The notes beneath the pieces are model-generated. The model ran no database searches. It was given only the letters and a program-made list of their open reading frames with translations, and was not told where the DNA came from. The position numbers and the translations under genes were made by a program. 20,133 nucleotides of DNA from a virus (lineage: Duplodnaviria; Heunggongvirae; Uroviricota; Caudoviricetes), in the IMG/VR virus record IMGVR_UViG_2778261637_000004, one strand, 5' to 3'. The first letter of the stretch is position 1. Each line of letters begins with the position of its first letter. This document shows positions 871 through 20,133 of this stretch, one piece after another.

Positions 871-886
871 CTGTGTTTATATACAG
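871..886. promoter_or_regulatory. LexA operator (SOS box) in the dinD promoter
   Basis: CTGTGTTTATATACAG matches CTGT-N8-ACAG with an AT-rich spacer, directly upstream of the dinD start. Confidence 0.65.
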
Positions 887-1533
887 TTGTGAGTATCTCA
901 CGTTCTCACTGCGCTGGGCAAAAAAACATCGCAAAATCTGGAGCAGGCACGCAAAACAGAATTGAATGTTGCGGGGAGGAAAAATGCCGCTCTGTTTGAG
1001 TGGGCGGCATTTGTGAAGGCTGAAAAGGAAGAATTGGCGTTACGAGTTATTCTGTTGAATCTGTTTGTAGAGTATTGGCCTCAGTTCCGCATTGTAGCTG
1101 ATTTTTTTCTAATGCGTTTTTTGATTATGTACACCCTTATGTACACGTTTTTTTAAAGCGTTCAGCAATTACGCTGGTGGATGATCACGGATAACCTGAC
1201 ATCTACAGCCGCCTTAAAAAGCTGAACCCGACAAGCATTACTGCGTATCGGGTTCGTTCGCTCTTTCTACTCGTGGCAGATGAGTTTACGGTGTGATTTT
1301 ATCGGGCGAGGGTATTGTATCAGGCATCCCCTTTTCTATGCAGATTTGCATAGTTCCGAATGGTGGCGTTATGGAAGCCTCCCATATCAGCATCATGCCC
1401 ACCAGCGTGAAGTATTTTTTATTTCGCGGGTGTAAAAATTTGACGAGGCGGGCGGTCCCATAAGCAATGGGTTGTAGGGATTTCGATCCCCCCTCCTGAA
1501 TGCAATTTTTCGTATATATATATACAAAACAGT

Positions 1534-2388: not shown

Positions 2389-2703
2389 TCACGATAGTTC
2401 CGTTTTGTTGAATTCAATTATATCAAGGTCAGAACTTTCGTAATCCTTACCGAATAAAGCAAAACATATCGCGTCAAGTTCTCTCTTATGTTTGGACGCC
2501 CGATCATAATTACCACCCCAACAGCAAATGAATCCACCAAGTACTGCTGATTCAAAAAGTAATGATGCTGCATCAATATGTCTGAACCAGGAGTCTATAA
2601 GTAAAGCAGAGAGTGATATTAATGTTCCCCACCCGCCAATCCTTCTCCATTTCTCAGCTTCATATTTAAGAGAAGCAATATATTCAATTTTATCTCTCGT
2701 CAT
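2389..2703 (-). CDS. Small predicted membrane protein (104 aa, two hydrophobic segments), AT-rich; last gene of the cargo operon
   Basis: Its ATG overlaps the stop of the upstream 925-aa gene (TGATG), indicating translational coupling. Hydrophobic stretches IGGWGTLISLSALLIDSWF and ASLLFESAVLGGFICCWGG. About 38% GC against a GC-rich neighbourhood. Confidence 0.6.
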   Translation of the reverse strand: MTRDKIEYIASLKYEAEKWRRIGGWGTLISLSALLIDSWFRHIDAASLLFESAVLGGFICCWGGNYDRASKHKRELDAICFALFGKDYESSDLDIIEFNKTELS

Positions 2704-5480: not shown

Positions 5481-5487
5481 GCTGCCG

Positions 5488-7512
5488 CTACAGAATAAAC
5501 CTTCGATTCGTTCTGGACTGTCTTAATCTGTTCATCCAACTCAGCCAGGAGATCAGAAAGTTTTGTCGGGTTTCCGGGTGAGCTATAGTCAGCTCAGGAT
5601 TGGCAACAGCCATGTCCCTGGCAGCCATAAGGTCATAGCTGTTGGATGAGAGAACCTGCCCTGTATCTGGATCAACGCTGACGTCCCCTCTGTGTTCACC
5701 AGCCGATGAGAAAGCACTTTCAGCACGAGGGACAGGCGATTCACTAATTGGCTCTGATGATGTTTCATATCTGACACCATTTTCTTCAAAAACCTTTTGT
5801 ATTTCATGGTATTGCTCTTGGTAAGTATCAGATGTATCTGATCGCAATGGACCATCAAGCCCTCGCGCCATCCCCCCAACATTTACAGGCTGACCATCAT
5901 TAAGTTGCCTGTATGCTTCATCCATGGCGTCAACATGGCTGTTGATGCTCTCATTGCTGGTGTGAAGCACTGGTGACGATTCAATATCGTAATGAAGCCC
6001 CTCATTCAAAATGTGGGCTGCATCAATATCGCTTGGTTTTATTCTTTCCCTCGCCCGGATACCAAAAACTTTTTCTACTGCGGCTTCCAGTTTCATATTG
6101 CGAAGACGCATACTTACGAGTAACCGTAACTGCTCAGGTGTAACGGTTCCAACCTGAATACCACTGTATCTGAATATATAGGCTTTAAAACCTGAAATAA
6201 TTTTTTCCCATGACGAAACGCTTGTCTTTAGAGATGGATTTACTGCATGTGCGGCAACTTCTTCAGCGTATAACCACTCAGGATATGTTTCAGGGTACTC
6301 ACCCCTTTTCTTATATTCATAATATTGTGACATCCCATATGCAAATTCAGGATAGTCAGAATGCTTGTTTGCAGATTTAAGTACAGCATTAGCTAGCTTT
6401 CTGGCCTTCCAGTCAGGGTAATGGCGCTGCTCAAGATGAAGCGCCTCATGATGAAGGGTTTCTAACAGTTCTTCATGGTCTTTTAATCCATTAATATTTA
6501 TTCTTATTATTGGTTCTTTTCCAGAAGCTACTGTCACATGACCTTTATTCAGAAGTATTTCTCCATCACTATTTTTTATTGCTGGTTCATTAATAAGTTC
6601 TATTACTCCTGAATCAGATAAATCACGAACCATTGACTCAATGTTACCATCAGGAGATTGCTGATAATGTTCACCAAAAGTTGATTTTATTTCTTCTGCA
6701 GAAATGTTCGACTCTGTACCATCATGGTTATTATGGGTAGTCAGGTGATGAACGCCACCAAAGACCCCGCCTAAAACGGCATCGACTAACATCGCCTGAC
6801 CGTCAAATACCCGGTACTGTTTTGCCATCTCCGTGTAGCCTTTTTCCTCCAGTGTTGCACCGACAGAGTAACGGTTCAGTCCACCGAATCCGGTGTTGAT
6901 TGCCACACCTGAGGCAATGCGCGTTGCCAGTGTGGTGCCGACGGCAGCGGGTAAGGCCATACCCACAGCATTGAAAAGGCTCTGCTGCGTTGCCAGGTTA
7001 CGCGCCGTAGCCTCATCTACTCCCTTCCCTTTAAAATCCTGATAGGACTGCTCATACGTAGAACCGAAGGCTGTAGCAGCGCCGATGAGTGGGCCGCCAA
7101 ACATAGTTGTTCCGATTGCAGGAACAAATTTACCAAGCTCATTTAATACCTCAGCCGCCATTCCCTGGCTGCCTGCATCAGGCTTCACATAGCTGCGGGC
7201 ATCCTGTAACTGTTTTCCGATCGTGTCGTATGTATCATTCAGTGTTTTGTCAGCATCAGGGAACATCTCCCGAAAAATATTAACAGTCGGTGCCACGTCT
7301 GCGGTAAATGCCGGATCGCTAATCAGGCGCTTGCTGAATCCGACGGCAGACTGCGCGAGACCGAGAGCCCCCTCCGCTACGCCGCTCAAAAGTGCAGTAC
7401 CTGAACCCTGGAAGGGAGTCGGATCGTAGTCTTCTGGCCTTGCTGGGTTGGCAACTGTTTTGTCGTCAATCCATGCCTGACCTTCTGGAGCCAAAGAAAA
7501 AACATCAGACAT
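5488..7512 (-). CDS. Large hypothetical protein (674 aa) with an embedded AT-rich segment carrying an HExxH(x4)H zincin-like motif; cargo operon gene 2
   Basis: Its ATG overlaps the stop of the 843-aa gene (TAATG). HEALHLEQRH occupies residues 355-364 (nt ~6421-6450). Roughly nt 6170-6760 are 27-35% GC, against about 55-60% in the flanking parts of the same gene. Confidence 0.85.
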   Translation of the reverse strand: MSDVFSLAPEGQAWIDDKTVANPARPEDYDPTPFQGSGTALLSGVAEGALGLAQSAVGFSKRLISDPAFTADVAPTVNIFREMFPDADKTLNDTYDTIGKQLQDARSYVKPDAGSQGMAAEVLNELGKFVPAIGTTMFGGPLIGAATAFGSTYEQSYQDFKGKGVDEATARNLATQQSLFNAVGMALPAAVGTTLATRIASGVAINTGFGGLNRYSVGATLEEKGYTEMAKQYRVFDGQAMLVDAVLGGVFGGVHHLTTHNNHDGTESNISAEEIKSTFGEHYQQSPDGNIESMVRDLSDSGVIELINEPAIKNSDGEILLNKGHVTVASGKEPIIRININGLKDHEELLETLHHEALHLEQRHYPDWKARKLANAVLKSANKHSDYPEFAYGMSQYYEYKKRGEYPETYPEWLYAEEVAAHAVNPSLKTSVSSWEKIISGFKAYIFRYSGIQVGTVTPEQLRLLVSMRLRNMKLEAAVEKVFGIRARERIKPSDIDAAHILNEGLHYDIESSPVLHTSNESINSHVDAMDEAYRQLNDGQPVNVGGMARGLDGPLRSDTSDTYQEQYHEIQKVFEENGVRYETSSEPISESPVPRAESAFSSAGEHRGDVSVDPDTGQVLSSNSYDLMAARDMAVANPELTIAHPETRQNFLISWLSWMNRLRQSRTNRRFIL

Positions 7513-10043
7513 TATTCAACCCTCACGACAATAGCTTTATTGGTTCTGGGATCTGTTGCCCAGCGTCCGCTACCATTTACAAGCCGATACCGGTTATTGC
7601 CGATATTAACTGGCGTGAAATTTGACACTGCATTTACGTTAAGTCCGGCATCTTTCAGTGCTTGTTTCGCAGATGTGGTATAGCGATCTTTGAAAGTAGA
7701 TTTATCCATGCCGAAAGGCATTACAACGTCGCCGCCATTAAAACCATTGTATATACCGCCAGTAGCATACTTCACGGCATCAGCTACAATGTCTGTATCA
7801 GGCATACTGGTTCTTACCGTAGATGCATCACCAGATTGATAAGCTATTCCTGCATAAGCGGCTTTGAAAAGGCTATAACTGATCTGGCGTAACTGCGGGT
7901 TACGGGCAAATGCATTACCTACCTGTTCGTCGAAAGCGTCTTTCATCTTATCTTCGCTCGGCAACTGTACCGGAGTTATGCCCGCATTCTTCATGGCCTT
8001 CGTCGGATTCAGTAGTTGGTCGCCGGAAAGAATAACCTTTGCAACGTCGTACTTGTTCATCGTCGGCTTATACCCGATGAACTGACTATATGGGATCGTC
8101 GGCTTGGTGTTGTCGTACTGGTTATCCGGCGTGCCCAGCAGCAGCGCAGAATAGGCTGTTGCCGCACTGTTCGGAGCAATTACAGATGCCACCTGCCGTA
8201 TTGCTGGCGCAGGCAGCTTCTCCCCCATGCTCTGCAACAGTTTAATTGTCTGGTCAACGTTCTGAGTGCCGCGCACCTGCTGTGCCAGCGCAGCCGCCTC
8301 TTCACTGTTGAGGATTGGGGCATTAATTCCCAACGCGCGTAAGCTTTCCTGCGACGAGAAACGGTTAGCCACCTCGGCAGTGATGTCGTCAGGGTTGTTG
8401 CTGGTGATCGGCTTATAGGCTCCGATTTCCACCGCTGCACTAAACGGATTATTCTGCCTCTGGGTTATTACCTTCGTGGCTGCCGCCGATACCCGGTCGA
8501 ATAACTCCGCACGAGACGCATACCCCTCCCCTGTTTCACCAGTATCCGGGCGCAATTGCTCAACATATGCGGTAATGCTGCTTGTCGGCATGTTGCGGAA
8601 AGAGCCTATATACTGTCCGGCGATCTGCAAATTTCTGAACTCGATATATCGCAGGTTTCCTTCTCTGACACCATAAGCTGCAATGAACTCATCCTCACCA
8701 GGTGGGTTAGGAAATTCAACGCCACGCATAAACGCAGCCGTTGCATCGCGAACCCTGCTATCGAGCATCGTTCTATATTCAGCCTGCTGCTGTCTGGCTA
8801 ATGCATCCGTCTGTCGCAACACGCTGGCCTGATCTGATTCACTTAAAGCATCGAACCAGGCTACACCGGTATAACGTTTATTTTTTGTCGGTAGCTGAGA
8901 AAGCCCCAGTGCGGCACTAACGCCAGCGGCCAATTGCTGATCACTGTACGGCTGACTGCCTTGCTCATGATGAATAATTGCTTTGCACAGAGATTTCAGT
9001 GTGTCAGGATTTGATGCGTCAAGCGGCTGGTCAGGAGTTACACCGAGCTGAGCACATACTGCCCGTATATAAGCATCAGTTTTATTATCATCACTGGCCG
9101 GTGCCCAGCGATTAATTATTTCGCTGATGGTGTCATAACCCTGACGCTGATACGACAGCAAATTGCGACCAAGCGCGCGAATACCGTGTTCAGGGGTTTC
9201 GAATTTGGCAAAGCGACCATCATCACCAGTCTGCCCAACCCACGGATTAGTTTTGCTGTATTCAAGATTGCCGGGGTTATTGTTGCGTATACCGCGGGTA
9301 CGATCGGAAGAGCCACTATCTGCTACAGCACGGCGAGATCCAGCAGCAGTATCGCTTAACTCTCCGTTTTGCTGTCTTACCTGAAGATAGTTTGCTCCAA
9401 TAGCATTTTGAGCAGTTGCTTTTGCTGTTGCTTCTTTAAACTCGATTTTCTTGGCCTGGATTTGCTCGTCGCTCCAGCCATGCGCAATACCGTAATCCTC
9501 AATTTGCTGGAAAGTTTGCGTATTAGCCAATATGTATGCTGCGTTGTTGCCATATAATGCTGAGGCATTTTTACCATTATTCAGCAGTGTCGCCTGAAAC
9601 TGGCCTTCTTCGTAGGCATTTATTTGCCCTATCTCGTACCTCCCGGCCTGCGTAGCGAACTGAATACGCTGCTGCTGCGCCTGCTGCATGAAAGCATTAC
9701 GAGCCTGTTCATCCGGCAGCGACATAGCCAGTTGTTCGACCTGAGCATCAAACTGCTGTGTATACTCATGGCCTTTTCCAATAGCATTTTTCCCTTTCAG
9801 ATTAAGCAATCCTGTTTCAGGATTATTCAGCAGATCACTGCCTGTCTGACTGAGTTTAAGGGATGCCTCCTGAACCAAGGCAATATTGGCGCGCTGTTTT
9901 GCCTGACCAAGAACATCAATTGCCTCTGTCCCTGCCCGAACAAAAGCATCACCAATACCTGGCTGAGAAAACGTCTGCAAGCCTGCTGACTGAACTCCAC
10001 GGCTCTCAACCTGACGTCCGGATACTGTTGGTACGACTGGCAT
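7512..10043 (-). CDS. Large hypothetical protein (843 aa), Gln/Ala-rich N-terminal region and a conserved-looking GIRNNNPGNLEYS...RWAP block; cargo operon gene 1
   Basis: Long ORF with ATG at 10043 and an AGGGGG Shine-Dalgarno upstream. The block at residues 251-315 (nt ~9099-9293) looks like a conserved domain core. GKNAIGKG is not a canonical Walker A. Confidence 0.85.
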   Translation of the reverse strand: MPVVPTVSGRQVESRGVQSAGLQTFSQPGIGDAFVRAGTEAIDVLGQAKQRANIALVQEASLKLSQTGSDLLNNPETGLLNLKGKNAIGKGHEYTQQFDAQVEQLAMSLPDEQARNAFMQQAQQQRIQFATQAGRYEIGQINAYEEGQFQATLLNNGKNASALYGNNAAYILANTQTFQQIEDYGIAHGWSDEQIQAKKIEFKEATAKATAQNAIGANYLQVRQQNGELSDTAAGSRRAVADSGSSDRTRGIRNNNPGNLEYSKTNPWVGQTGDDGRFAKFETPEHGIRALGRNLLSYQRQGYDTISEIINRWAPASDDNKTDAYIRAVCAQLGVTPDQPLDASNPDTLKSLCKAIIHHEQGSQPYSDQQLAAGVSAALGLSQLPTKNKRYTGVAWFDALSESDQASVLRQTDALARQQQAEYRTMLDSRVRDATAAFMRGVEFPNPPGEDEFIAAYGVREGNLRYIEFRNLQIAGQYIGSFRNMPTSSITAYVEQLRPDTGETGEGYASRAELFDRVSAAATKVITQRQNNPFSAAVEIGAYKPITSNNPDDITAEVANRFSSQESLRALGINAPILNSEEAAALAQQVRGTQNVDQTIKLLQSMGEKLPAPAIRQVASVIAPNSAATAYSALLLGTPDNQYDNTKPTIPYSQFIGYKPTMNKYDVAKVILSGDQLLNPTKAMKNAGITPVQLPSEDKMKDAFDEQVGNAFARNPQLRQISYSLFKAAYAGIAYQSGDASTVRTSMPDTDIVADAVKYATGGIYNGFNGGDVVMPFGMDKSTFKDRYTTSAKQALKDAGLNVNAVSNFTPVNIGNNRYRLVNGSGRWATDPRTNKAIVVRVE

Positions 10044-10478: not shown

Positions 10479-10628
10479 TTACTTCTGGTAGTTACGCCAT
10501 ACTGATTTCCCGATCCCATCTATCCCCATTTCTTTTTCAGTGCGTTTAAGCGACCGTTTCAGGTCTTCTAAATTATCCGGTTGCTTCGGTGGCCTCTGTG
10601 CCTTCCTGGAACATTCCAGTCGTCGCAT
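10479..10628 (-). CDS. Small basic ORF (49 aa) below the ORF-track threshold
   Basis: Hand translation gives MRRLECSRKAQRPPKQPDNLEDLKRSLKRTEKEMGIDGIGKSVWRNYQK. The stop lies 7 nt before the terminator hairpin. The ribosome-binding site is weak. Confidence 0.3.
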   Translation of the reverse strand: MRRLECSRKAQRPPKQPDNLEDLKRSLKRTEKEMGIDGIGKSVWRNYQK

Positions 10629-10712
10629 TGATATGTAATACCGTTCCTTGTCAGTTCCCCAACTGCATTACTTCACCCCATCGCGCCGCCGCTCTTCGAT
10701 ACAGGGTTTTAG

Positions 10713-11129
10713 TTAGCCTCCGGCTCTTCCGTAGCGCTGTTCTGGTGGATTCACATAGCCCCTTTCTTGCAGGTATTCGCGAATATCAGACATCAGGAGA
10801 CGGTTAACCGTGCTCCTGTCTTTTCTCTGGTAAAGGCGTCTGGTGATCATGAAGTAGTTAGCAATGACCTCCGGTATATCCCTGACGCTGATACATGCTG
10901 TATGCTGGTCAATAGCTTCAATCATCTCTTCACGAGTTACAAAAGTCTGGCGTAAACGAGTGATCACACCATGTACATCTGAATGATCATTTATACGCTT
11001 ATTTTGGCGCTTCGCGCTCTCGACTGTGACACTGACAACAATGTCAACTCTTTGTTTCTCCGCCATTTCATCCACAATGTGATCACCTGCACGGCGACCA
11101 TGTGCGTGATCATTTCTTACTATTTCCAT
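10713..11129 (-). CDS. Hypothetical protein (138 aa), last large gene of the replication operon
   Basis: ORF with GGAGGAG upstream of the ATG at 11129; overlaps the end of the FinO/ProQ gene by 20 nt. No recognisable motif. Confidence 0.55.
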
Positions 11130-12279: not shown

Positions 12280-14406
12280 TTAATCTTCTGCTTCAGGCTG
12301 GAACATCAGCACGTAAAAAATATGCTGCTTCCCGCCAATCCTGCCGAGCGCCTTTTTCTTGTAACGGCGGTCGCCTCCCGCTTCCAGCATTCCGGCAGCA
12401 CTCAACGCGCGGGCAAAGTGAGACGGATTAAATCCCTGTGCGATCTCCCCCTCAAACACATGCGGAAACGTGTAAAAACGGAACTCATCATCTTCATTTC
12501 TGATACTCCCCTTTCTGTATCCGGCAAGGTCTTTAATCGGTAAATCACGCTCATCGCTGTTTGGATAAGGAAGGTATCGACTGAACCCGAACGACGACAA
12601 AAACGCCTCAGCCTGTTCAACCATCTGTTTAAATTCCCTGTTGCCCGTGCCGAATTCCTTCACCCAGGCATTAAAGTTATGCTGAACTGCATCACGGCAC
12701 GCCTGAACATCCCAGCCTGTAACATGACCGGAAAGCACAAGCGCGGCCTCCAGTACGGCGAATCTTTCCCCCACGCGGTGAACCTGCTCGCCGTAGCTCT
12801 CCGGTATCAGGTTGCGCCACCGCTCGCGACATGCCCTTACCGCGTCCTTTGCCTCCTGCTGGTGGCCTGCCAGCCATTTAACCCACTCACGACCTGCCGC
12901 CCCGTGATTTTCTGTCCAGGCATCTTTTAACGCGTCTGCGTGCGCCTTTCCGGTGCTGTATTCGTGAAACTGCGAGGCCTTTTCCATCGGCACGTTAAGC
13001 AGACGGACAAGCTGCCCCGCTTTAATTTTTATCCCTTCCGTTTTGAGGAATGTTTCAACGTCCATTTCTCCGGTGCTGATTGCCACCGTGCGCCAGTGTT
13101 TTATCTCCCTGTTGCCGCCGTCCTTCGCCCCCTGTAATTTCCCGGAACCGTTAAACAGCGTATAGGCTGACGTGGACACCTCCCGCGCGTTTCCGGCCTG
13201 GCCTATTTCATCCAGGGGTAACAGCCCGTCATTATGTGCTTCGGCCTCGTTGGCGATACCTAACGCCGTTCCGTACCAGGTCAGCCGTTGCGCGTCCGGC
13301 TCTCCCCATAAACTTGATGCAATGTTCTGTGTGGTGGTTTTACCTGCTGATGATTGCTCAAAAAGATGAACCCCGAAGCCGTCAGCACCCACCAGCCCGA
13401 TTAATGGTGCGGATAGCGATACCGCCACACCCAGCATCATGGACGGATTACCACCAGCCAGCCGCGCCACGGTATCGCGCCAGCCCTCCGCTGTTCCCGC
13501 CACGGAATAGCCATTAACTGCGGCAGTTTTTCCGGTAAACAGGATGGGTTTCTCTGATTCACCAATGACCGAACCATCCGGCATGATGTACGCACCAAAA
13601 TGCCAGCCCGTTGTAGTGCTTAGCTGCCATTCCTCATGACTTCCGCTTAACTGCATCCAGTCAGCCAGGATGGCTCTGTATTTGCCGTTGGTCGTCACGT
13701 TAAGACCGTGGTCTTTCAGCAACCGCCAGCCGTCACGGTCACCAATGCCTCCGCACGGGACCGCCATTGTAATGACCTCATGGTTTGCTGGTTTTTTCCA
13801 GCGCATCACGCGGTAATGCTCTTTGCCGATTGTTCCTGTTCCCAGTAGTTCAAGCGGAGAACATAACCACGTCTCAGGCCGGATAATTTCGCCTGACTGC
13901 TTGTCCACTTTGGGCGTTACCCAGAAAACACCATCGACGCGACTTTCAACACGAGGCTTTAATTCGTCATCATAATTTCCGGTGAAATTTGTCTTTGCCG
14001 GAAGGTTGATCACCAGACTGTTACCGCGTTCCGCATCATCCTTCAGTCCAGCCATGCGCGGTGTCCAGTCCTCCGGCTGCTGGTCAACAAAGCTGCGGTA
14101 GCAACGCGCCTCCTTCACACCCGCCACTGCAAGCAGTGTCGCTATCTGTGTAAGGTGCTGCTCTGATATTTCACCAGCACGATAAACGCGCACGTAATAG
14201 CGCCCTTTGTCGATGATTTGCGTGTCTGCCAGACTCGCCAGTTGTTCCGGTCCAAGAATAACTGGATGTGTATCATCTGCCGCAATATGCTTTCCGGCCC
14301 ATTCGCTCCACTCTTTCGCATGTGCCCAGGCATCACTACCCGCAAAGATAATCACCTCCGTCATTTTGTCTTTCGGCTGGTGCTTTAAATTCGGTGCGCG
14401 TTTCAT
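12280..14406 (-). CDS. Replication initiator: primase/helicase-type protein with a P-loop NTPase domain
   Basis: 708 aa. Walker A-like LFEQSSAGKTTTQ and an acidic LLPLDEIG stretch (Walker B-like). ATGA start/stop overlap with the upstream 100-aa gene. Sits beside the iterons and ssb, as in P4-alpha-like and PICI replicons. Confidence 0.8.
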   Translation of the reverse strand: MKRAPNLKHQPKDKMTEVIIFAGSDAWAHAKEWSEWAGKHIAADDTHPVILGPEQLASLADTQIIDKGRYYVRVYRAGEISEQHLTQIATLLAVAGVKEARCYRSFVDQQPEDWTPRMAGLKDDAERGNSLVINLPAKTNFTGNYDDELKPRVESRVDGVFWVTPKVDKQSGEIIRPETWLCSPLELLGTGTIGKEHYRVMRWKKPANHEVITMAVPCGGIGDRDGWRLLKDHGLNVTTNGKYRAILADWMQLSGSHEEWQLSTTTGWHFGAYIMPDGSVIGESEKPILFTGKTAAVNGYSVAGTAEGWRDTVARLAGGNPSMMLGVAVSLSAPLIGLVGADGFGVHLFEQSSAGKTTTQNIASSLWGEPDAQRLTWYGTALGIANEAEAHNDGLLPLDEIGQAGNAREVSTSAYTLFNGSGKLQGAKDGGNREIKHWRTVAISTGEMDVETFLKTEGIKIKAGQLVRLLNVPMEKASQFHEYSTGKAHADALKDAWTENHGAAGREWVKWLAGHQQEAKDAVRACRERWRNLIPESYGEQVHRVGERFAVLEAALVLSGHVTGWDVQACRDAVQHNFNAWVKEFGTGNREFKQMVEQAEAFLSSFGFSRYLPYPNSDERDLPIKDLAGYRKGSIRNEDDEFRFYTFPHVFEGEIAQGFNPSHFARALSAAGMLEAGGDRRYKKKALGRIGGKQHIFYVLMFQPEAED

Positions 14407-14705
14407 TTCTTGCCCCTGAATGCGTTAATCATGTTCTTTATTACCTGAATATTTGCCCGTGCTTTCTCTTTACTGGTGGGCTTACTGCGTGGTGCTGCAC
14501 ATACCAGTGAAAAATCACGCCGGAACTGATGAACGGGCATCACACAGTCATAGTCGTACCCTGCGCGGCGGTATGTAATGTGCCGTTCATACACGGAATT
14601 AATAACCACGATGTCGCCATATTTATCCCGGAAAATATCCCCGATCCTGATTTTCGGGTGAGTCTGTCCGCTGGCATTTAAGCCAGTAAATTTAATCTTC
14701 TTCAT
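14403..14705 (-). CDS. Hypothetical protein (100 aa), translationally coupled to the primase gene
   Basis: ATGA overlap with the primase start; 2-nt gap from the upstream 85-aa gene. Confidence 0.6.
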   Translation of the reverse strand: MKKIKFTGLNASGQTHPKIRIGDIFRDKYGDIVVINSVYERHITYRRAGYDYDCVMPVHQFRRDFSLVCAAPRSKPTSKEKARANIQVIKNMINAFRGKK

Positions 14706-14707
14706 GT

Positions 14708-14965
14708 TTATTTCCCGGTGTGGGGTTCTTCTTTATATTTATGGGCTAACAAATCTGGTAATTGCCTGTATTTATCCTCGGCAATATATTCAGAATAATC
14801 GACAGCACTGTTCAGTATATCTAACGCCGTTTCATGCTCCAGATTCGAAACTATAAGGAACGTTGCTACTTTTAGCATATTCGCGATATGCAAAAGAGCA
14901 TCAATTTCATTTTTTGGCGCTTCGCTGAATTTTTGCTCCAGAAGAATAAATCGTTCATCACGCAT
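14708..14965 (-). CDS. Hypothetical protein (85 aa)
   Basis: ATG at 14965 preceded by AGGAGGA; acidic, helical-looking sequence. Confidence 0.6.
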   Translation of the reverse strand: MRDERFILLEQKFSEAPKNEIDALLHIANMLKVATFLIVSNLEHETALDILNSAVDYSEYIAEDKYRQLPDLLAHKYKEEPHTGK

Positions 14966-15161
14966 AGTGTTCCTCCTGACGGATGCGGGCAGTAAATACC
15001 ATCACGCAGCCAGCCGGGGATTGCTGACGGGCTTCCTGTTCGCTGGTGGCCACGATGTGAATCACGCGCGGTTGTGCCGTACTCAGGGCGATAAAACGCC
15101 AGATGTATTTATTCAGGTTGTGCGAGTCCCGCCCTTGCGGGTGTGTGGTATGATTTCTCAT
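14958..15161 (-). CDS. Hypothetical small protein (67 aa), first gene of the leftward replication operon
   Basis: This is the C-terminal 67 codons of the 415-aa track ORF, starting at an ATG (15161) with GAGGT upstream; it overlaps the next gene by 8 nt. The rest of the 415-aa ORF conflicts with a well-supported plus-strand gene. Confidence 0.45.
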   Translation of the reverse strand: MRNHTTHPQGRDSHNLNKYIWRFIALSTAQPRVIHIVATSEQEARQQSPAGCVMVFTARIRQEEHYA

Positions 15162-15257
15162 AGCTACCTCGATACTTCTGCTATCGTTGGTGGTTAGAAG
15201 CCCGGTTAGTGTTAGCGCACTGCCGGGTTTCGTCGTTTCTGCACCTTGCATCAACAA

Positions 15258-15336
15258 GGTGTAAGTAACTTTATTTATAGGTGGCTTACATGTCAATGCT
15301 TTTATGTAAGACTTTTTATGTGTATATTGTCTTACA
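15258..15336. promoter_or_regulatory. Divergent promoter/operator region with nested inverted repeats
   Basis: GTGTAAG (15258-15264) pairs with CTTACAC (15330-15336), and CTTACAT (15284-15290) with ATGTAAG (15303-15309). TATATT -10-like element at 15322-15327. Lies between the leftward replication operon and the rightward RHH-like gene. Confidence 0.45.
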
Positions 15337-15357
15337 CTTTCGTTAAGAGGATTACAG

Positions 15358-15663
15358 ATGGCTACAGGTTCAAAAAACGCAAAATCACAATCGCTGACAG
15401 CTCGGATCCCGCATGATGTTATTGAAGGCATGGAATCCGTAAAACTGGACGGCGAAAGCAACGCCGGATTCATAGTAACCGCCATGCGTGGTGAGATCGC
15501 CCGCCGCCAGGCAGAAGGAAGCGGAGAAAATCCCCTCGTGTCTTCACTGGATGCCTTAGTTAAGGTCGAACAAATCGGCATCAAGGCAGCGGAGGAAATC
15601 GGGCAACTCGTAGCCGTCGCTCGTGAAGAACTCCAGCGCCGGGAGGCCAAAGAGCAGGAATAG
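15358..15663 (+). CDS. Small DNA-binding protein, ribbon-helix-helix-like (MobC/CopG-like); candidate island regulator
   Basis: ATG preceded by AAGAGGA. SLTARIPHDVIEGMESVKLDGESNAGFIVTAMRGEIARR is consistent with an RHH N-terminus followed by a helical C-terminal region. Confidence 0.6.
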   Translation: MATGSKNAKSQSLTARIPHDVIEGMESVKLDGESNAGFIVTAMRGEIARRQAEGSGENPLVSSLDALVKVEQIGIKAAEEIGQLVAVAREELQRREAKEQE

Positions 15664-15720
15664 CCACTATCAGCGCCATAGTTTGAGGAACGCAGGCGCA
15701 TTGCTTTACAGGGCAGCACC

Positions 15721-15900
15721 ATGAGCGACACAGAATCAACAAAAACACCATCACCAACTCGTAAGAGACGACGCAAAAATATAGCGCATGAACATGAATC
15801 AGAAAGATTCGCACCTTGTTCGTTTGCTCTTGAGAAATTCCTTAAAGAGCACAGGAAAAAGCTCTCGTTGCAAACCCTGGAACGAACCAAATCTGACTGA
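15721..15900 (+). CDS. Small basic protein (59 aa), not in the ORF track
   Basis: Hand translation gives MSDTESTKTPSPTRKRRRKNIAHEHESERFAPCSFALEKFLKEHRKKLSLQTLERTKSD. Followed by a plus-strand terminator; the ribosome-binding site is weak. Confidence 0.35.
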   Translation: MSDTESTKTPSPTRKRRRKNIAHEHESERFAPCSFALEKFLKEHRKKLSLQTLERTKSD

Positions 15901-15967
15901 TCACATTGCCCACCAGCTGCAAATCTGGCATTGTTGGCGATGCGTTTGATTTCCTTTGTTCCCACTG

Positions 15968-15995
15968 GCGACCTCTCCCGGTCGCCTTTGTTTTG
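15968..15995 (+). terminator. Rho-independent terminator for the rightward small operon
   Basis: GGCGACC-TCTCCC-GGTCGCC hairpin followed by TTTGTTTT. Confidence 0.6.
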
Positions 15996-16044
15996 CCAGT
16001 TATCCAGCAACGGGGCGCTTTTTCTTTCTGTAACGTTCGGATCG

Positions 16045-16602
16045 TTACACATTGTTTTCACCCTCCAGAAAATCAGGCTGATATTTACGCCATAGCGCCC
16101 GCTCTTCTCGTTCCAGTGCATCTTTTGCCTCTTTGCATTGCTGTAACCTGTAACCGCGTTTGCTGGCTTCCTGTTGATAGGCAGCCTGGCGTTTACTGAA
16201 ATCATTCAGCATGGCAAACGGAACACCATAACCCCCCGTTTTGCGGATTGAAGGGATAACCTCGCGGAATACCCAGTTACTGAAACGGTGCGCAAATGTG
16301 CCTGGTGTGGAAGCTTTACGGCTGCGGGCGATCAGTTTGTAGAAACCTGATTCAGAGACAACATTCCAGCTTCTGGCACCACCACGCTTACCGGAATGCC
16401 CCTCGGTTAAAGCTAGGGTCATTACCTCGTCGTTATCCAGAACTGAAACGGCATCAGTAACATTGCTGATTTCCAGCGCAGCACACACATCAGCGCCAAC
16501 AAACCACGGCTCGCCGTTGATACTCACTATGCGCACCTGAATGTCATCGAATTTAATGACAGAGATTTCAGTGCGCCCGGCATAAAAGACAGGTTTACGC
16601 AT
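16045..16602 (-). CDS. Bro-N domain protein (phage anti-repressor family)
   Basis: 185 aa. IQVRIVSINGEPWFVGADVCAALEISNVTDAV is a typical Bro-N core. 8-nt overlap with the upstream gene. Confidence 0.8.
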   Translation of the reverse strand: MRKPVFYAGRTEISVIKFDDIQVRIVSINGEPWFVGADVCAALEISNVTDAVSVLDNDEVMTLALTEGHSGKRGGARSWNVVSESGFYKLIARSRKASTPGTFAHRFSNWVFREVIPSIRKTGGYGVPFAMLNDFSKRQAAYQQEASKRGYRLQQCKEAKDALEREERALWRKYQPDFLEGENNV

Positions 16603-17419
16603 GGCTGCTCACCTCCATGTGGCGGGCTAACCAGCGTTGCGAAAGGCGAATTAATTCAGCTTTCCGCTGGTGGTAGTCCAGGCCTAACTCAATCAGCGTG
16701 ATATTGCTCTGCTCAAGGTAAGAAAGGTGCTCAAGCTGCAACACGCTCATGTGGTCGCGTGGTTCACCTGTGATGCCGTTCGCCTGCGCCCACTGTTTTG
16801 CAGTCATGCCACCCAGCACGATACGCGCCAGCATATTAGCTTCCGTAGTGTAGTGGTGCTGGAGCGTGTTTTTACCCAGTTCAGCCCGGTACGCCTCCAG
16901 CGCGGCACACATTGGCTTAAAGTAGCTGGCTACGGTGATACGGGCTTTCAGTTCCCGGCGTAACGCTGCGGAACGTACAGGCGCTACCTTGTGTAGCTCC
17001 TCCTCGCATTTGATGAAGTACTGACGAACGGCGCGGCCCTGTTCGGTGCGTTCGATCATTGCCAGTTCTTTCGCCATTCCGACACTTAACAGATAGTCTT
17101 TACCGGGTCTGCCAGAGTGCTTAATCTTGCTGTAAGCCTCGCCATTCGGGCTTTTCCCCAAATTTGGGGAAATTGTTTTATGGACTGAGTAATCGTACCC
17201 AATGGTGAAGTCATATTCAGAGATGCGATCAGTGATCCATGTAGAGAAGTCTTTTCCCACGCCCAACGCTTTGTGTAACGCTTTTGCGCTAACAACAGCG
17301 GCTTCACGCCCGCCAATAACGCCGGAAATAACCGGGATAATTTCGCCGAAATTTTGCAGATTCTGGTTTTCAGGCCGAACAAAGCCCTGCCCCTGTACGG
17401 GCGTTTTTCGCAGTTTCAT
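16595..17419 (-). CDS. Phage anti-repressor, AntA/KilA-N-like N-terminus with KilAC/ORF6C-like C-terminus
   Basis: 274 aa; the domain pattern (AKALHKALGVGKDFSTWITDRI...; ...EANMLARIVLGGMTAKQWAQANGI...) is recognised by eye only. Confidence 0.7.
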   Translation of the reverse strand: MKLRKTPVQGQGFVRPENQNLQNFGEIIPVISGVIGGREAAVVSAKALHKALGVGKDFSTWITDRISEYDFTIGYDYSVHKTISPNLGKSPNGEAYSKIKHSGRPGKDYLLSVGMAKELAMIERTEQGRAVRQYFIKCEEELHKVAPVRSAALRRELKARITVASYFKPMCAALEAYRAELGKNTLQHHYTTEANMLARIVLGGMTAKQWAQANGITGEPRDHMSVLQLEHLSYLEQSNITLIELGLDYHQRKAELIRLSQRWLARHMEVSSHA

Positions 17420-17496: not shown

Positions 17497-17703
17497 TCAG
17501 GCTGATGTGTTTCGGCGTTCTTCCAGCCAGCGATTAATCTCTACCGCATCAAACGCGGTAACATTACTGGTAAGTTTTATAGGCCGTGGTAACGTGCCAT
17601 TTTTCACCCAGCGATCGATTGTTGGCATAGAGACTCCCAGCAGTTCTGGCAAACGGTATCGGCGAATGTAGCCAGTAGTAGGAATGGTAGATTGTTCTGT
17701 CAT
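17497..17703 (-). CDS. alpA: AlpA-family transcriptional regulator / excisionase-like protein
   Basis: 68 aa with a winged-HTH core (YIRRYRLPELLGVSMPTIDRWVKNGTLPRPIKL); the usual integrase partner in P4-type and CP4-57-type islands. Confidence 0.8.
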   Translation of the reverse strand: MTEQSTIPTTGYIRRYRLPELLGVSMPTIDRWVKNGTLPRPIKLTSNVTAFDAVEINRWLEERRNTSA

Positions 17704-17814
17704 GTTCCCATAGCTCCTGTTGATAGCGGTTGACGTTACGGGAACAAATTTAGCGATTTGATAGGTGATGGATAAGGCACACTAGTTCTACTGTGCCTGT
17801 ATAGTTAAGTCACT

Positions 17815-18771
17815 CTACACCTTTCCGTTAGCTGCGGATCTTAAGTGTTTTAGGATTACGTTTTCGTTAGTAATGGTTAGCGGTGGTATCTCATCTTTGT
17901 GAGTGAGAATACAATCACGCCACTTTTCAGGGCTTATTTCTTTGCGTTCACCCCGGCACTCATCAGGGTATTTTGATAGTAAGTATATTGCAGATTTAAA
18001 TAGCTTTTCTCTATTCGTTGCGTGATGTTCTGCAATGTGATTAACCTTTTTTATTTCCTGCATTAACTGAGGATTGGCGGAAACCCCTCGTCGAGTGTTA
18101 TTTGGGAGGTCACTGTAATCACCATTGTATTTTAGTAATTCTCTTACTTGGTCTGAGGTTATCCATAAATCATTTTCCGTTATTTCGACGTCAGAATATA
18201 CTTCTTCATAATTTTCGTCATCTTCTTTGCTATCGTAAATATCATCATAATCTAGCAATAAAGGAATTAAACAAAGAGCGGGTGTGGTCTCATCAGTACG
18301 ATAAAGATCCAAAGACCCCCATAAAAGAGAAGATTTCCCATAATTCAATACTGAATTTATTACTGGCAGTTGGGGAACCCACAAGCCAAAGGCTCTTCCT
18401 TGATGGCTTTGTGATTTTTCGCTAGAAGAACTTCCCTCAGCTAGTTGAGACTGATAGAACCATGGATGGAAAATTGTGTCATCATTTTCTTGATCGTAAG
18501 AAACTCGATCAATAGCGAATGATGTATATTTTGATATATTGCGAGCAGATGCTAGAACGCTATTGTTAGTACTTAAAGATAAATACCAATCGCTAAGCTC
18601 AGTTGCATTACCTTCAATCCATAGGACTGATTTTAATCCATCTAACCTAACGCATAGAGTTATTTTCTCAGATACAGCGAGGCTTAGTAAATCATCAGTA
18701 CTAACACCTAAAAAATCAGCAGCCCTTTTTATACGGCAAAATGAAAATGGTATTTTTGTAGTGTCAGACAT
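17815..18771 (-). CDS. Hypothetical protein (318 aa) with an N-terminal HTH-like segment; AT-rich int-proximal accessory gene
   Basis: ORF of 957 bp at about 35-40% GC. The N-terminus (RIKRAADFLGVSTDDLLSLAVSEKI) is HTH-like. Length and position resemble yfjH of CP4-57, but sequence identity is not verified. Confidence 0.7.
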   Translation of the reverse strand: MSDTTKIPFSFCRIKRAADFLGVSTDDLLSLAVSEKITLCVRLDGLKSVLWIEGNATELSDWYLSLSTNNSVLASARNISKYTSFAIDRVSYDQENDDTIFHPWFYQSQLAEGSSSSEKSQSHQGRAFGLWVPQLPVINSVLNYGKSSLLWGSLDLYRTDETTPALCLIPLLLDYDDIYDSKEDDENYEEVYSDVEITENDLWITSDQVRELLKYNGDYSDLPNNTRRGVSANPQLMQEIKKVNHIAEHHATNREKLFKSAIYLLSKYPDECRGERKEISPEKWRDCILTHKDEIPPLTITNENVILKHLRSAANGKV

Positions 18772-18864
18772 ATGCCACCTTTAAGCATTTCACCTTAAAA
18801 AATGAATGAGTCCAGCGGTAAGGTTTTCCGCTCTTCACCCCGTCGGGCTAGGCTCAATCTGTCC

Positions 18865-20133
18865 CTATGATAGCTTATGCATTTTCCTGATTGGCGTCAC
18901 GTTGTATTCTTCATTGCGTTCTAGCGCTACCAGCAGATCAGCCCACTGTGCCAGCGCAGCTTTACGCTCATCAAAATACTGATGGCGGTTATAAATCCCC
19001 TCCACACCCTTAATGCGATGATTGAGGCATCGTTCCGCTACGACAGGATCAACACCCAATGCTGCTAAATGAGTACGTGCGGTACGCCGGAAGTCGTGAA
19101 TCGTGAAATTAGGCACATCCGGCATTTCGGCGCGAACCTTAGCCAGTGCTACGGGTAAAGTGCTTTCCTGAATATGTGGGATCATTCTGTTTTGCATCTT
19201 CCTGGCTGGAAGCACCCATGCGCTATTACATGAAAAGGTGTGTAGCTCTCTCAACCATTCAACGGCAGGAGAAGGTAGAGGTATATCAATAGGGTCTCCG
19301 TTTTTGCTGCGTTCTTCCGGCAAATGCCATACCGCACCATCTAAATCAAACTCTTCCCATCGTGCGGCGCATAACTCCATCTTACGAACGCATAGTGCCA
19401 GCAATAGCTTAAATGTCAGTTCGTTCTGGCGGCTGAATCCTTTGGCTTTACGCATTGCCTGAAAAAATTGGATTAATTCGTCACGGTTCAGCCAGCGATC
19501 ACGAGATAATTCTTTCCCACCAGCATCTGATACTTCGAAAGCTGAGCAGGGATTTATCTCCAGAGCGTGGCGTTTTATCCCATAGTCAAAGATACGGCGT
19601 GTCCAGCGTAATACATCTGTTGCTATCGTTGGTGCTCCTCGGTCAACGATACCTTTCAACATGTCGTCAATGTGGCGTGGCTTAACGTCCTCTACCTTCA
19701 TATGCCCAATGCAGGGGTTAATATCCTTATCAATTCTCCGGCGAAGGATATCGGGATGTTTCCATCTCGGAAGTATCTGTCGCTCGAAGTATTCGGCGGC
19801 CAGATCTGAAACGCGCATGGCGTTTTTCTCAGCCTCCATTTTTGCCAGTGCTTCAGCTTTTCGTTCCTGTTTTTCTGCTGCTACGTCATAGCCAAGAGCA
19901 ACTCTGGCTGACAGCTCTTTTGCTGTTTCTCTGGCTTTTGATAGTGACAGTTCGGAGTAAGAGCCGATAACCATAGCCCGCTGTTTTCCTGCGAGCTTAT
20001 ATCGGAATCGCCAGAACGGGACTGTGTAGTTTTTGGGGTAGCAAATATAAAGGCCGTTGCCGTCTGCCTTGCCATCAAATCTGTCTCCCGCCTTTATCCA
20101 TGCGCGGATCTGCATATCTGTGAGTTTTGGCAT
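18865..20133 (-). CDS. Tyrosine recombinase, P4-type integrase with an N-terminal arm-binding (DUF4102-like) domain
   Basis: 422 aa. The N-terminus (LTDMQIRAWIK...DGNGLYICY...WRFRY) matches the P4-integrase arm domain. The C-terminus has HDFRRTARTHLAALG and a GIYNRHQY tyrosine region. The start codon is the final three bases of the window. Confidence 0.9.
   Translation of the reverse strand: MPKLTDMQIRAWIKAGDRFDGKADGNGLYICYPKNYTVPFWRFRYKLAGKQRAMVIGSYSELSLSKARETAKELSARVALGYDVAAEKQERKAEALAKMEAEKNAMRVSDLAAEYFERQILPRWKHPDILRRRIDKDINPCIGHMKVEDVKPRHIDDMLKGIVDRGAPTIATDVLRWTRRIFDYGIKRHALEINPCSAFEVSDAGGKELSRDRWLNRDELIQFFQAMRKAKGFSRQNELTFKLLLALCVRKMELCAARWEEFDLDGAVWHLPEERSKNGDPIDIPLPSPAVEWLRELHTFSCNSAWVLPARKMQNRMIPHIQESTLPVALAKVRAEMPDVPNFTIHDFRRTARTHLAALGVDPVVAERCLNHRIKGVEGIYNRHQYFDERKAALAQWADLLVALERNEEYNVTPIRKMHKLS

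Follow-up and report, generated by a model that had tools for sequence, protein, structure and literature searches.

Gram-negative PICIs, a type of phage satellite, are built of four zones, for integration, Bro proteins, replication and late functions (Mageeney et al. 2023, PMC10111431). Domain-swapping proteins of the AntA, Bro-N and Rha types occupy the first of these, next to the integration zone, and captured helper late genes make up the late zone (PMC10111431); Bro-N, AntA and Rha proteins are a hallmark of such satellites (PMC10111431, PMC13612085). In Gram-negative PICIs the master regulator is AlpA, which the helper induces. This applies also to EcCIMP1, an E. coli PICI that is mobilised by phage Kapi1 and for which an antirepressor, Ash and a primase are noted as the conserved core (PMC11773190). 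EcCIMP1 altered neither the titres of its helper nor the expression of a helper CI reporter (CI-lux), and it adds superinfection immunity against that helper (PMC11773190). PLE CapR of Vibrio is a characterised satellite member of the Bro network and a repressor of a helper gene (PMC10111431). The left operon of P4 comprises vis/orf88, eta/kil with the CI RNA, epsilon, orf151 and alpha. P4 epsilon binds the P2 repressor C, and the Ant proteins of P22 and P1 bind their repressors. A separate class of antirepressors, of the type of Gifsy GfoA/GfhA, 186 Tum and N15 AntC, is SOS-controlled and has a LexA box in the promoter.

In this work we analysed a window of 20,133 nucleotides (the whole stretch of DNA under study), in which an earlier note had pointed out adjacent Bro-N and AntA genes. 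The two genes very probably form the Bro zone of a PICI-family satellite of Gram-negative type that is related to EcCIMP1. Our literature searches found nothing on an island at yicC-dinD and no experiment on either AntA or Bro-N.

The island at yicC and its neighbour DinD

The island of about 19 kb is inserted at the 3' end of yicC (Table 1). Its genes run in the order int, alpA, AntA, Bro-N, Icd-like, DUF4222, DUF927 primase, SSB, ProQ and then the virion genes, and all of those from AntA to ProQ are co-oriented on the minus strand. From the island end to the integrase we saw no set of genes for capsid, portal, tail or lysis.

Table 1. Features of the window, by position
Feature	Coordinates	Strand	Remarks
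dinD	1-837	-	core chromosomal SOS gene, outside the island
LexA box	871-886		perfect CTGT-N8-ACAG upstream of dinD; sole exact box in the window
Island end / att core	1046-1062	.	imperfect direct repeat of the last ~20 nt of yicC
Late zone	2703-10043	-	three large virion/ejection-type proteins (843, 674 and 925 aa)
DUF927 primase-helicase	12280-14406	-	replication zone
DUF4222 gene	14403-14705	-	between p85 and the DUF927 primase
p85	14708-14965	-	ahead of DUF4222
Long ORF	14958-16052	-	364 codons; GGAGGG ahead of the start
Icd-like peptide	14958-15161	-	end of the long ORF
Structured leader	15150-15262		after the internal promoter; z = -3.3
Sigma-70-like promoter	15268-15296	-	TTGACA-17-TAAAGT; within the long ORF, ~100 nt upstream of the Icd-like start
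YlcI/YnfO-family gene	15358-15663	+	followed by orf59
orf59	15721-15900	+
Terminator	15967-15986	+	follows orf59
Bro-N gene	16045-16602	-	185 aa; ORF and Pfam Bro-N
AntA/Bro-N stop/start overlap	16595-16602	-	8 nt, ATGCGTAA
AntA-domain gene	16595-17419	-	274 aa; ORF and Pfam AntA
AlpA-like HTH regulator (AlpA/HTH_17)	17497-17703	-	68 aa; 77 nt upstream of AntA
int-alpA RNA motif	18793-18858
Tyrosine integrase	18865-20133	-	integration zone; the window ends at its start codon, yicC lies just beyond

The earlier note had counted three anti-repressor-like proteins in the island by adding DinD to the pair. DinD does carry a Bro-N domain (Pfam, E 8.9e-8, 33.1 bits) next to its match to the NCBIfam DinD equivalog (E 4.7e-147), and a perfect LexA box precedes its gene, in keeping with the LexA control named in the note. 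Homology to K-12, where yicC and dinD are adjacent and have no island between them, stops at 1063; the island ends at about this point, some 225 bp upstream of the dinD start, beyond dinD and its promoter. DinD is an unrelated chromosomal neighbour and no part of the island, and since it lies outside, the count of three mixes two unrelated things. DinD is described as a modulator of the RecA filament and not as an antirepressor. Control of the AntA/Bro-N pair by LexA and the SOS response was rejected, because the only exact LexA box of the window belongs to dinD. A scan of the window gave no box ahead of the pair; a site with one mismatch (16141-16156) sits inside the Bro-N coding sequence, and such sites occur at chance level (5 found, 6.6 expected).

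At the far end of the island, the three large late-zone proteins have no PADLOC, Pfam or NCBIfam matches. That they might be a new defence system was rejected on their full-length matches to the phage virion families phrog_992, phrog_1145 and phrog_684 and on the identity of about 89% between the 925-aa protein and its epsilon15 counterpart. Judged from their sequences they are captured late genes, and because they resemble epsilon15, the helper is likely to be an epsilon15-like podovirus and not the lambdoid phage that had been suggested before.

An inward-facing integrase followed by AlpA, a Bro zone followed by co-oriented primase and SSB genes, and captured late genes are the traits of a Gram-negative PICI, and the earlier description of the element as a satellite holds. 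The island has the four-zone order of Gram-negative and helper-embedded PICIs (HE-PICIs) (PMC10111431); it differs in its yicC att site, of which our literature searches gave no description, and in that no C4/isrK-type immunity RNA was detected at the gathering score or at E<=1. A SymR-like RNA matched below threshold at 15162-15234 on the plus strand. Two adjacent Bro-network genes are unsurprising here because the slot is known to hold such genes (PMC10111431). Homologues of the island Bro-N occupy the Bro slot of HE-PICIs inside terL, and in helper-embedded and Enterobacter PICIs it is the Bro-N family alone that takes this place after AlpA.

Among described satellites, EcCIMP1 carries an 'antirepressor' of the AntA/AntB family with 74% identity to the island AntA over 250 aa, and its DUF927 primase is 62% identical to that of the island. 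In both elements AntA comes after int-alpA and shares the same 8-nt overlap with the next gene, and Icd-like and PerC genes are present. EcCIMP1 differs by an extra gene between alpA and AntA, by DUF4222 and Ash instead of Bro-N after AntA, by integration at tRNA-Thr and by late genes that are P22/Kapi1-like, whereas those of the island are epsilon15-like. The likeness to P4 is one of arrangement: behind an AlpA-like gene come coupled genes that overlap by 8 nt and then a long ORF, analogous to eta/kil, that runs over an internal promoter, ends in a small peptide of the cell-division-inhibitor type and precedes the primase-helicase. Between vis and eta, however, P4 lacks both AntA and Bro-N, and homologues of sid/delta/psu and Ash/epsilon are absent from the window. 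When the proteins of the window were compared with P4 by tblastn, the integrase alone matched (25% identity), and the island was not assigned to the P4-like satellites.

Domains, constraint and distribution of AntA and Bro-N

Both genes and their overlap are found as the earlier note described them, and profile searches bear out the two heads, with membership of a Pfam family defined as a score above the gathering cut-off (27 for AntA, 25.6 for Bro-N). The 274-aa protein matches AntA (PF08346) at residues 43-125 (E 8.1e-21, 74.8 bits) and the 185-aa protein matches Bro-N (PF02498) at residues 22-117 (E 5e-18, 65.9 bits). The label 'AntA/KilAC-like' was right in its first half; KilAC was ruled out, as the C-terminal half of the protein gave no match to KilAC/ANT (PF03374) at E<=0.01. 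The AntA protein consists of a leader of 17-25 aa, the head and a helical C-terminal module (about residues 120-274), and in Bro-N the head is followed by a helical C-terminal tail. The AntA module (residues 120-274) matched no Pfam family. It is modelled confidently as helical (pLDDT 74-89), and the N-terminal half of the AntA model is of low confidence (pLDDT <50). A structural match of the AntA model to DdrC is weak (E 1.8e-4, TM 0.33-0.40), the N-terminal half of the model being unreliable, and a DdrC-like fold was kept only as a faint hint of a possible wHTH-plus-helical-bundle architecture. The Bro-N head shows a weak structural likeness to winged-helix DNA-binding domains of the Ski/Dachshund (E 0.04) and Mbp1 types. 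Searched by sequence, AntA has no relatives among solved structures and the matches of Bro-N are at chance level.

Both proteins fall in 'anti-repressor' families of PHROGs. The shuffling Bro network is the source of both DNA-binding heads, and the label is a domain-derived name that stems from these common N-terminal heads rather than from tested orthologues. In 100 representative proteins, the AntA-type C-terminal module is preceded by a Rha head in 36, AntA in 36, KilA-N in 19 and Bro-N in 2. The likeness to classical antirepressors (P1 Ant1/Ant2, P22 Ant, the N15 immA genes, Stx-phage Ant) is likewise confined to the N-terminal heads, with 43-46% identity between the island AntA head and 'antirepressors' of Stx and Shigella phages. 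The C-terminal halves differ, KilAC and P22_AR_C were not found in the island proteins, and the classical genes lie in a phage immunity region, whereas AntA and Bro-N stand in a satellite. CapR resembles the pair as a satellite-encoded, DNA-binding regulator; it represses the capsid promoter of its helper ICP1 and is likened to the pair by its membership of the Bro network.

Compared with E. coli variants, dN/dS is 0.09-0.30 for AntA and 0.14-0.29 for Bro-N; by this measure both genes are under purifying selection. Bro-N is a pseudogene with an internal stop in strain MS 196-1 and is therefore dispensable, at least for maintenance of the island. Full-length homologues of both proteins were found across Enterobacterales. 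Among 53 species-level loci, defined by a full-length AntA homologue, a co-oriented integrase lies upstream of AntA in 43 and a co-oriented DUF927 primase downstream in 37, and Bro-N is present in 4. The AntA family occurs in 809 of 5426 E. coli genomes (about 15% of complete genomes) and the pair in 21 of them. AntA proteins share about 55-65% overall identity from Escherichia to Xenorhabdus and Proteus, and the C-terminal module is conserved. AntA is thus a backbone gene that is co-inherited with the primase, and Bro-N an optional, exchangeable occupant. Exchange of cassettes is frequent, as illustrated by a Rha gene inserted after codon 17 of AntA, and the AntA/Bro-N/primase core is also found at tRNA-Gly, there combined with another integrase. 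The protein encoded next after AntA belongs to the Ash family in most related islands; no Ash/epsilon homologue was matched in the window.

Gene junctions and the Icd-like region

The interval between alpA and AntA gave no promoter-like or terminator-like site in our scan. A GGAG precedes the AntA start and a GGAGGT lies 8 nt ahead of the Bro-N start. The ATG of the long ORF overlaps the Bro-N stop (ATGTGTAA). In the replication zone, ATGCGTGA and ATGA overlaps connect the genes, and p85 and DUF4222 stand 2 nt apart. Throughout the series ATGCGTAA, ATGTGTAA, ATGCGTGA and ATGA, a Shine-Dalgarno sequence is found at each start. The same 8-nt overlap lies behind AntA homologues in about half of the 53 loci, regardless of which gene follows. 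These features suggest that the overlap of AntA and Bro-N serves translational coupling.

The long ORF passes antisense through the YlcI/YnfO-family gene and orf59, which with their terminator form a plus-strand unit converging on the end of Bro-N, and it terminates as the Icd-like peptide. Of 18 loci, 16 keep the corresponding frame open for 185-427 codons upstream of this peptide. The two remaining frames are open for 1-41 codons, apart from one run of 180 codons in locus L018, itself one of the two loci outside the range of 185-427. Constraint on the protein is weak (dN/dS 0.3-0.6, with few substitutions), and the value of the ORF may lie solely in its being a translated tract. That the structured Icd leader RNA pairs with the AntA mRNA at its 5' end, in the style of P4 seqA/seqB, was rejected: there are no exact complementary runs of at least 7 nt, and the duplex energy is reached by 22% of shuffles.

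Possible roles of the pair

AntA and Bro-N are probably AlpA-dependent early regulators of the satellite. The timing of expression is deduced from the gene order, from the empty scan between alpA and AntA and from the analogy with vis-eta of P4. In the mode of action that we tentatively propose, both genes would be silent in the resting island and would be transcribed with alpA, or just after it, once a helper phage turns alpA on. The stop/start overlaps would chain the pair to the eta-like long ORF across the Icd-like region and on to the primase operon, so that ribosomes translating AntA and Bro-N would move on into the Icd-like region and into the replication genes. The proteins, each a Bro-network DNA-binding head joined to a helical C-terminal module, would then act as early regulators that bind DNA, partner proteins or both, at satellite promoters or helper genes; AntA would be the backbone component, Bro-N an exchangeable extra, and DinD would take no part. 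The identity of the Bro zone and this mode of action, taken as one picture, are held with moderate confidence. The earlier note had suggested that the island can trigger or respond to helper induction. It almost certainly responds, through AlpA; helper-dependent induction, excision and high-frequency transfer have been demonstrated for its relative EcCIMP1 and are putative for the island.

The island could also trigger induction if the proteins were true antirepressors: AntA, Bro-N or both would bind the repressor of a resident helper prophage, for instance after the satellite has entered a lysogen. We regard this as unlikely. The names given in PHROGs and RefSeq speak for it, as does the identity of about 50% between the Bro-N head and N15 gp30, which is annotated there as 'anti-repressor Ant' and presumably lies in the anti-immunity region of N15. 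The P4 record, moreover, calls epsilon the helper derepression protein, and 'ash', the usual follower of AntA, is glossed as a helper-prophage derepressor (PMC13612085); with no Ash match in the window, that role could have passed to AntA or Bro-N. Yet the names stem from the shared heads, KilAC is absent and the pair has no upstream LexA box. A protein that binds fast-evolving, phage-specific repressors would not be expected to keep its C-terminal module across genera as AntA does, and EcCIMP1 left helper titres and CI reporter expression as they were.

Rather less probable is a role in interference or anti-phage defence, in which the proteins would bind DNA of a helper or competitor phage and repress phage genes, or would aid superinfection exclusion. 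CapR, the cited characterised satellite member of the Bro network, is indeed a repressor, and the C-terminal module of AntA has a PADLOC match to PDC-S22 (E 1.6e-10); PDC-S22, however, is only a candidate defence system, and no other defence systems were matched. The superinfection immunity of EcCIMP1 fits such a role but is a phenotype of the whole island, and AntA is inherited with the replication backbone and not as accessory cargo.

We are more doubtful still of a reading in which the Bro-zone cassettes are plug-in units that both drive the crossing of the Icd-like region and derepress the helper. Here the first head, be it AntA, Rha or Bro-N, would bear one of two conserved leaders of about 20 codons, and successive genes would be joined by fixed ATGnnTAA junctions. 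Coupled translation would enter the eta-like ORF, whose translation would be required for transcription across the Icd-like region; in an island that has no Ash/epsilon homologue, AntA and/or Bro-N would supply helper derepression, and the PICI could actively induce an epsilon15-like helper prophage rather than wait. It is very improbable that the genes are decaying or selfishly shuffling cassettes that at present do nothing for the island, as the internal stop in MS 196-1, the rarity of the pairing and the frequent cassette exchange might suggest, given the low dN/dS of both genes, the many E. coli genomes with an AntA family member in a position conserved across genera, and the conserved signals of translational coupling.

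The AntA/Bro-N pair is the variable regulator module that is usual in an already described kind of E. coli phage satellite, and its anti-repressor activity is putative. A tempting but superficial reading is thereby corrected: three names of the anti-repressor type do not add up to a sensing circuit when one of them, DinD, is that of a host SOS gene that simply lies beside the insertion site. The analysis places the island in a known satellite family, suggests an epsilon15-like helper and offers testable roles for a very common, uncharacterised gene family. Should AntA or Bro-N turn out to release helper prophages from repression, PICIs would be actively inducing prophages, with consequences for how virulence and resistance genes spread.

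The AntA and Bro-N genes and their products

The two adjacent ORFs encoding proteins of 274 and 185 aa are present exactly as the earlier note described them. The AntA stop and the Bro-N start have 8 nt in common (ATGCGTAA), and both starts are preceded by Shine-Dalgarno sequences. Pfam confirmed a Bro-N domain in the 185-aa protein (residues 22-117, E 5e-18) and an AntA domain in the 274-aa protein (residues 43-125, E 8.1e-21), but the suggested KilAC/ANT domain was not found in the latter. The PHROGs families of both proteins are labelled anti-repressor. Both proteins belong to annotated RefSeq families present in hundreds of genomes, and full-length homologues occur across the Enterobacterales. 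Compared with E. coli variants, dN/dS is 0.09-0.30, and by sequence both genes are clearly coding.

Three parts make up the AntA protein: a leader that varies, an AntA head whose central segment is swapped, and a strongly conserved C-terminal half, which is confidently predicted to be all-helical (pLDDT 74-89). In a full-library search this half was found in 304 representative clusters, nearly always as the C-terminus of 210-280-aa proteins. Among 100 clusters, its N-terminal partners were Rha (36), AntA (36), KilA-N (19) and Bro-N (2). Since such varied Bro-network heads precede it, it is a Bro-network C-module that Pfam lacks, distinct from KilAC. In PADLOC, it has a match to the candidate PDC-S22. 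Fold searches retrieved viral 'antirepressor', KilAC and KilA-N proteins and, weakly, DdrC, a wHTH-plus-helical-bundle protein, while the Bro-N head weakly resembles the winged-helix DNA-binding domains of Ski/Dachshund and Mbp1. All of this fits predicted DNA-binding heads joined to helical modules for interaction or oligomerisation, and does not extend to repressor binding.

The first gene of the Bro zone, the variable regulator slot of the island, starts with one of two conserved leaders of ~20 aa, MK..N..L.GQGFxHPEN or M.IEKSRFNSEAAPQ, independent of the head that follows (AntA, Rha or Bro-N). The DNA beneath the first leader type contains a conserved CAGGG-N9-CCCTGAAAAC element.

Features of the island and its flank (window coordinates unless a locus is named; L001, L002 and L089 are compared loci)
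Feature	Coordinates	Strand	Remark
DinD	1-837	-	NCBIfam DinD equivalog, E 4.7e-147
LexA box	871-886		perfect; upstream of dinD
Direct repeat of yicC end	1046-1062		imperfect
yicC end, L001	~24168-24190
Three large proteins	2703-10043	-	843, 674, 925 aa
PerC position	~10479-10704	-
138-aa protein	10713-11129	-
364-codon ORF	16052-14958	-	ATG at Bro-N stop; end is annotated Icd-like peptide
Structured leader	15150-15262	-	three hairpins, z = -3.3
SymR-like match	15162-15234	+	sub-threshold
Sigma-70-like promoter	15296-15268	-	TTGACA-17-TAAAGT
YlcI/YnfO segment	15358-15663	+
Bro-N ORF	16045-16602	-	185 aa
AntA-domain ORF	16595-17419	-	274 aa
Bro-zone leader	17360-17419	-	alignments A1-A3
Bro-zone leader, L002	5580-5630		alignments A1-A3
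Bro-zone leader, L089	6001-6060		alignments A1-A3
alpA region	17497-18771	-
int-alpA RNA motif	18793-18858	-	Rfam RF02996, 42.5 bits, above gathering score
Bro-N with internal stop, L001	19925-20482
Broken long frame, L001	18817-19020		109 codons

A satellite at the 3' end of yicC

In E. coli K-12, yicC adjoins dinD with 220 bp between them, and the same two genes flank the corresponding region in E. coli MS 196-1 (L001). Homology to K-12 on the dinD side ends at position 1063, next to a direct repeat that imperfectly copies the final ~20 nt of yicC (TTATTCTGTTGAATCTG vs TTATTCGATGTTCTGAATCTG). The repeat therefore points to integration into the yicC 3' end, and together with the homology stop it places the island from ~1063 to beyond 20133 (~19 kb). 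Judged by sequence, the repeat is the attachment site and island end, the predicted site is a protein gene rather than a tRNA gene, and dinD with its promoter and LexA box belongs to the chromosomal flank. A literature search found no description of an island at yicC, and it appears to be undescribed. The earlier note had counted DinD, which it called LexA-controlled, as a third anti-repressor-like protein. DinD lies outside the island and is functionally unrelated; its Bro-N match in Pfam is weak, though above threshold, the trio is a coincidence of domain names, and the LexA box has no link to the pair.

On the minus strand, the island begins with the integrase, directly followed by the int-alpA RNA motif, a 318-aa unknown protein and an AlpA-like HTH protein. 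AntA and Bro-N come next, then an opposed YlcI/YnfO unit, an Icd-like peptide, an 85-aa protein, DUF4222, a DUF927 primase-helicase, SSB and ProQ/FinO. The 138-aa protein, a PerC remnant, a 68-aa protein and three large proteins complete the order. For the PerC-family regulator, the annotation of the near-identical islands L001 and L003 gives a frameshift, and in the window its position holds no intact minus-strand ORF of at least 50 aa. The 138-aa protein aligns with positions 11-81, the N-terminal segment, of phrog_63 ('anti-repressor Ant'), a family whose central part is matched by the AntA protein. A terminase-family segment gives a further, weak match, and the protein may be another piece of the Bro network or may be related to packaging.

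Searches of Pfam, NCBIfam and PADLOC gave no match for the three large proteins, but over their full length they match virion families of phages (phrog_992, phrog_1145 and phrog_684). A transglycosylase-like segment lies within the 843-aa protein. The 925-aa protein shares ~89% identity with a virion protein of epsilon15, a temperate podovirus. All three look like genes for ejection or internal virion proteins that were captured from a helper. The helper would therefore be an epsilon15/phiV10-like phage, and the lambdoid target proposed earlier is probably wrong.

Identity to the closest E. coli relatives (L001-L003) is 95-99% for AntA, Bro-N, the primase and the late genes. Megablast finds no match there for the YlcI/YnfO segment or the alpA region, and shorter genes take the place of the 318-aa ORF; the window is evidently mosaic relative to these islands. 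In MS 196-1, Bro-N carries an internal stop and the long frame treated below is broken, the island being otherwise near-identical; this copy may be decaying.

Operon structure and a long frame downstream of Bro-N

A scan of the 77-nt alpA-AntA gap found no promoter-like or terminator-like site. At the other end of the pair, an ATG preceded by a GGAGGG Shine-Dalgarno sequence overlaps the Bro-N stop (ATGTGTAA) and opens a 364-codon ORF. It runs antisense to YlcI/orf59 and crosses a strong sigma-70-like promoter ~100 nt upstream of the Icd-like start, behind which lies a structured leader. Downstream, the Icd-like frame meets the 85-aa gene at ATGCGTGA, the latter is separated from DUF4222 by 2 nt, and DUF4222 joins the primase at ATGA.

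Of 18 loci that have an Icd-like segment, 16 keep the Icd frame open upstream for 185-427 codons, as far as the end of the gene before it; among them are loci of 34-75% identity and E. coli variants whose YlcI module is a different one. The other two frames meet a stop after 1-41 codons, save for a single 180-codon run in L018, which is among the two loci with a short Icd frame. Such a frame is no chance feature of one sequence. In P4, the AlpA-like vis is translationally coupled to eta, which spans an internal promoter and the CI immunity RNA, and eta translation prevents premature termination (PMC10111431). The P4 record has 8-nt overlaps as in the window. The 364-codon ORF is analogous to P4 eta/kil in arrangement. 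P4 and the island share sequence similarity only in the integrase.

C4/isrK RNA was not detected in the window. The SymR-like match reaches 33.6 bits (gathering score 61), and the leader region may be an immunity or antisense RNA region. Pairing of the leader RNA with the AntA 5' region was tested with a negative result.

Relatives and role of the pair

A scan of one genome per species yielded 53 loci with a full-length AntA homologue, essentially all in Enterobacterales. An integrase lies upstream on the same strand in 43 and a DUF927 primase downstream on the same strand in 37. AntA and primase diverge in parallel (~55-65% identity) and the integrase is mostly of a different family (~25-30%), which places AntA in a replication-linked backbone. 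The AntA/Bro-N/primase/late core also occurs in E. coli with another integrase, at tRNA-Gly. Bro-N adjoins AntA in only 4 of the 53 loci; among 5426 complete E. coli genomes, 809 contain AntA-type DNA and 21 the complete pair. Members of the same Bro-N family alone occupy the post-AlpA slot of helper-embedded PICIs within prophage terL, and of Enterobacter PICIs whose primase is of the D5 type. ExPEC XM has a third gene, Rha, in the same operon; its insertion point lies exactly behind codon 17 of AntA.

EcCIMP1, the closest characterised relative, is an E. coli PICI whose alpA controls its excision and its transduction with helper phage Kapi1 (PMC11773190). Its genes are, in order, int, alpA, a hypothetical gene, AntA, DUF4222, Ash, Icd, TOPRIM/DUF927 primase and PerC; its AntA is 74% identical to ours over 250 aa and its primase 62%. 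A 2026 survey of Enterobacter satellites found BRO, AntA/AntB and Rha genes beside Icd, YlcI/YnfO, ProQ and PerC (PMC13612085). The earlier view of the element as a satellite, with genes typical of satellites, thus holds, and its interpretation is partly supported. AntA and Bro-N are conserved coding genes, linked in translation, and belong to the Bro zone of a satellite of the PICI family. The literature already describes the Bro zone of Gram-negative PICIs, the AntA, Bro-N and Rha genes that occupy it and the swapping of their domains. Possibly new are the 8-nt overlap junctions kept whatever gene comes after AntA, the shared leaders on whichever Bro-zone gene is first, and the eta-like frame conserved across genera.

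That the two proteins are antirepressors able to induce a helper prophage is improbable. Their family names, the ~50% identity of the Bro-N head to phage N15 gp30 (annotated 'anti-repressor Ant') and the absence from the window of the Ash/epsilon-type gene of most relatives would favour it, but the AntA C-module is deeply conserved across genera, SOS control is absent, and EcCIMP1 changed neither helper titre nor CI expression (PMC11773190). A further rival casts them as CapR-like interference factors. Activation of alpA by the helper is the established trigger in Gram-negative PICIs (PMC11773190), and we lean somewhat towards a picture in which a helper phage would activate alpA, AntA and Bro-N would be expressed in consequence, and both would go on to serve as early regulators that bind DNA and/or protein.
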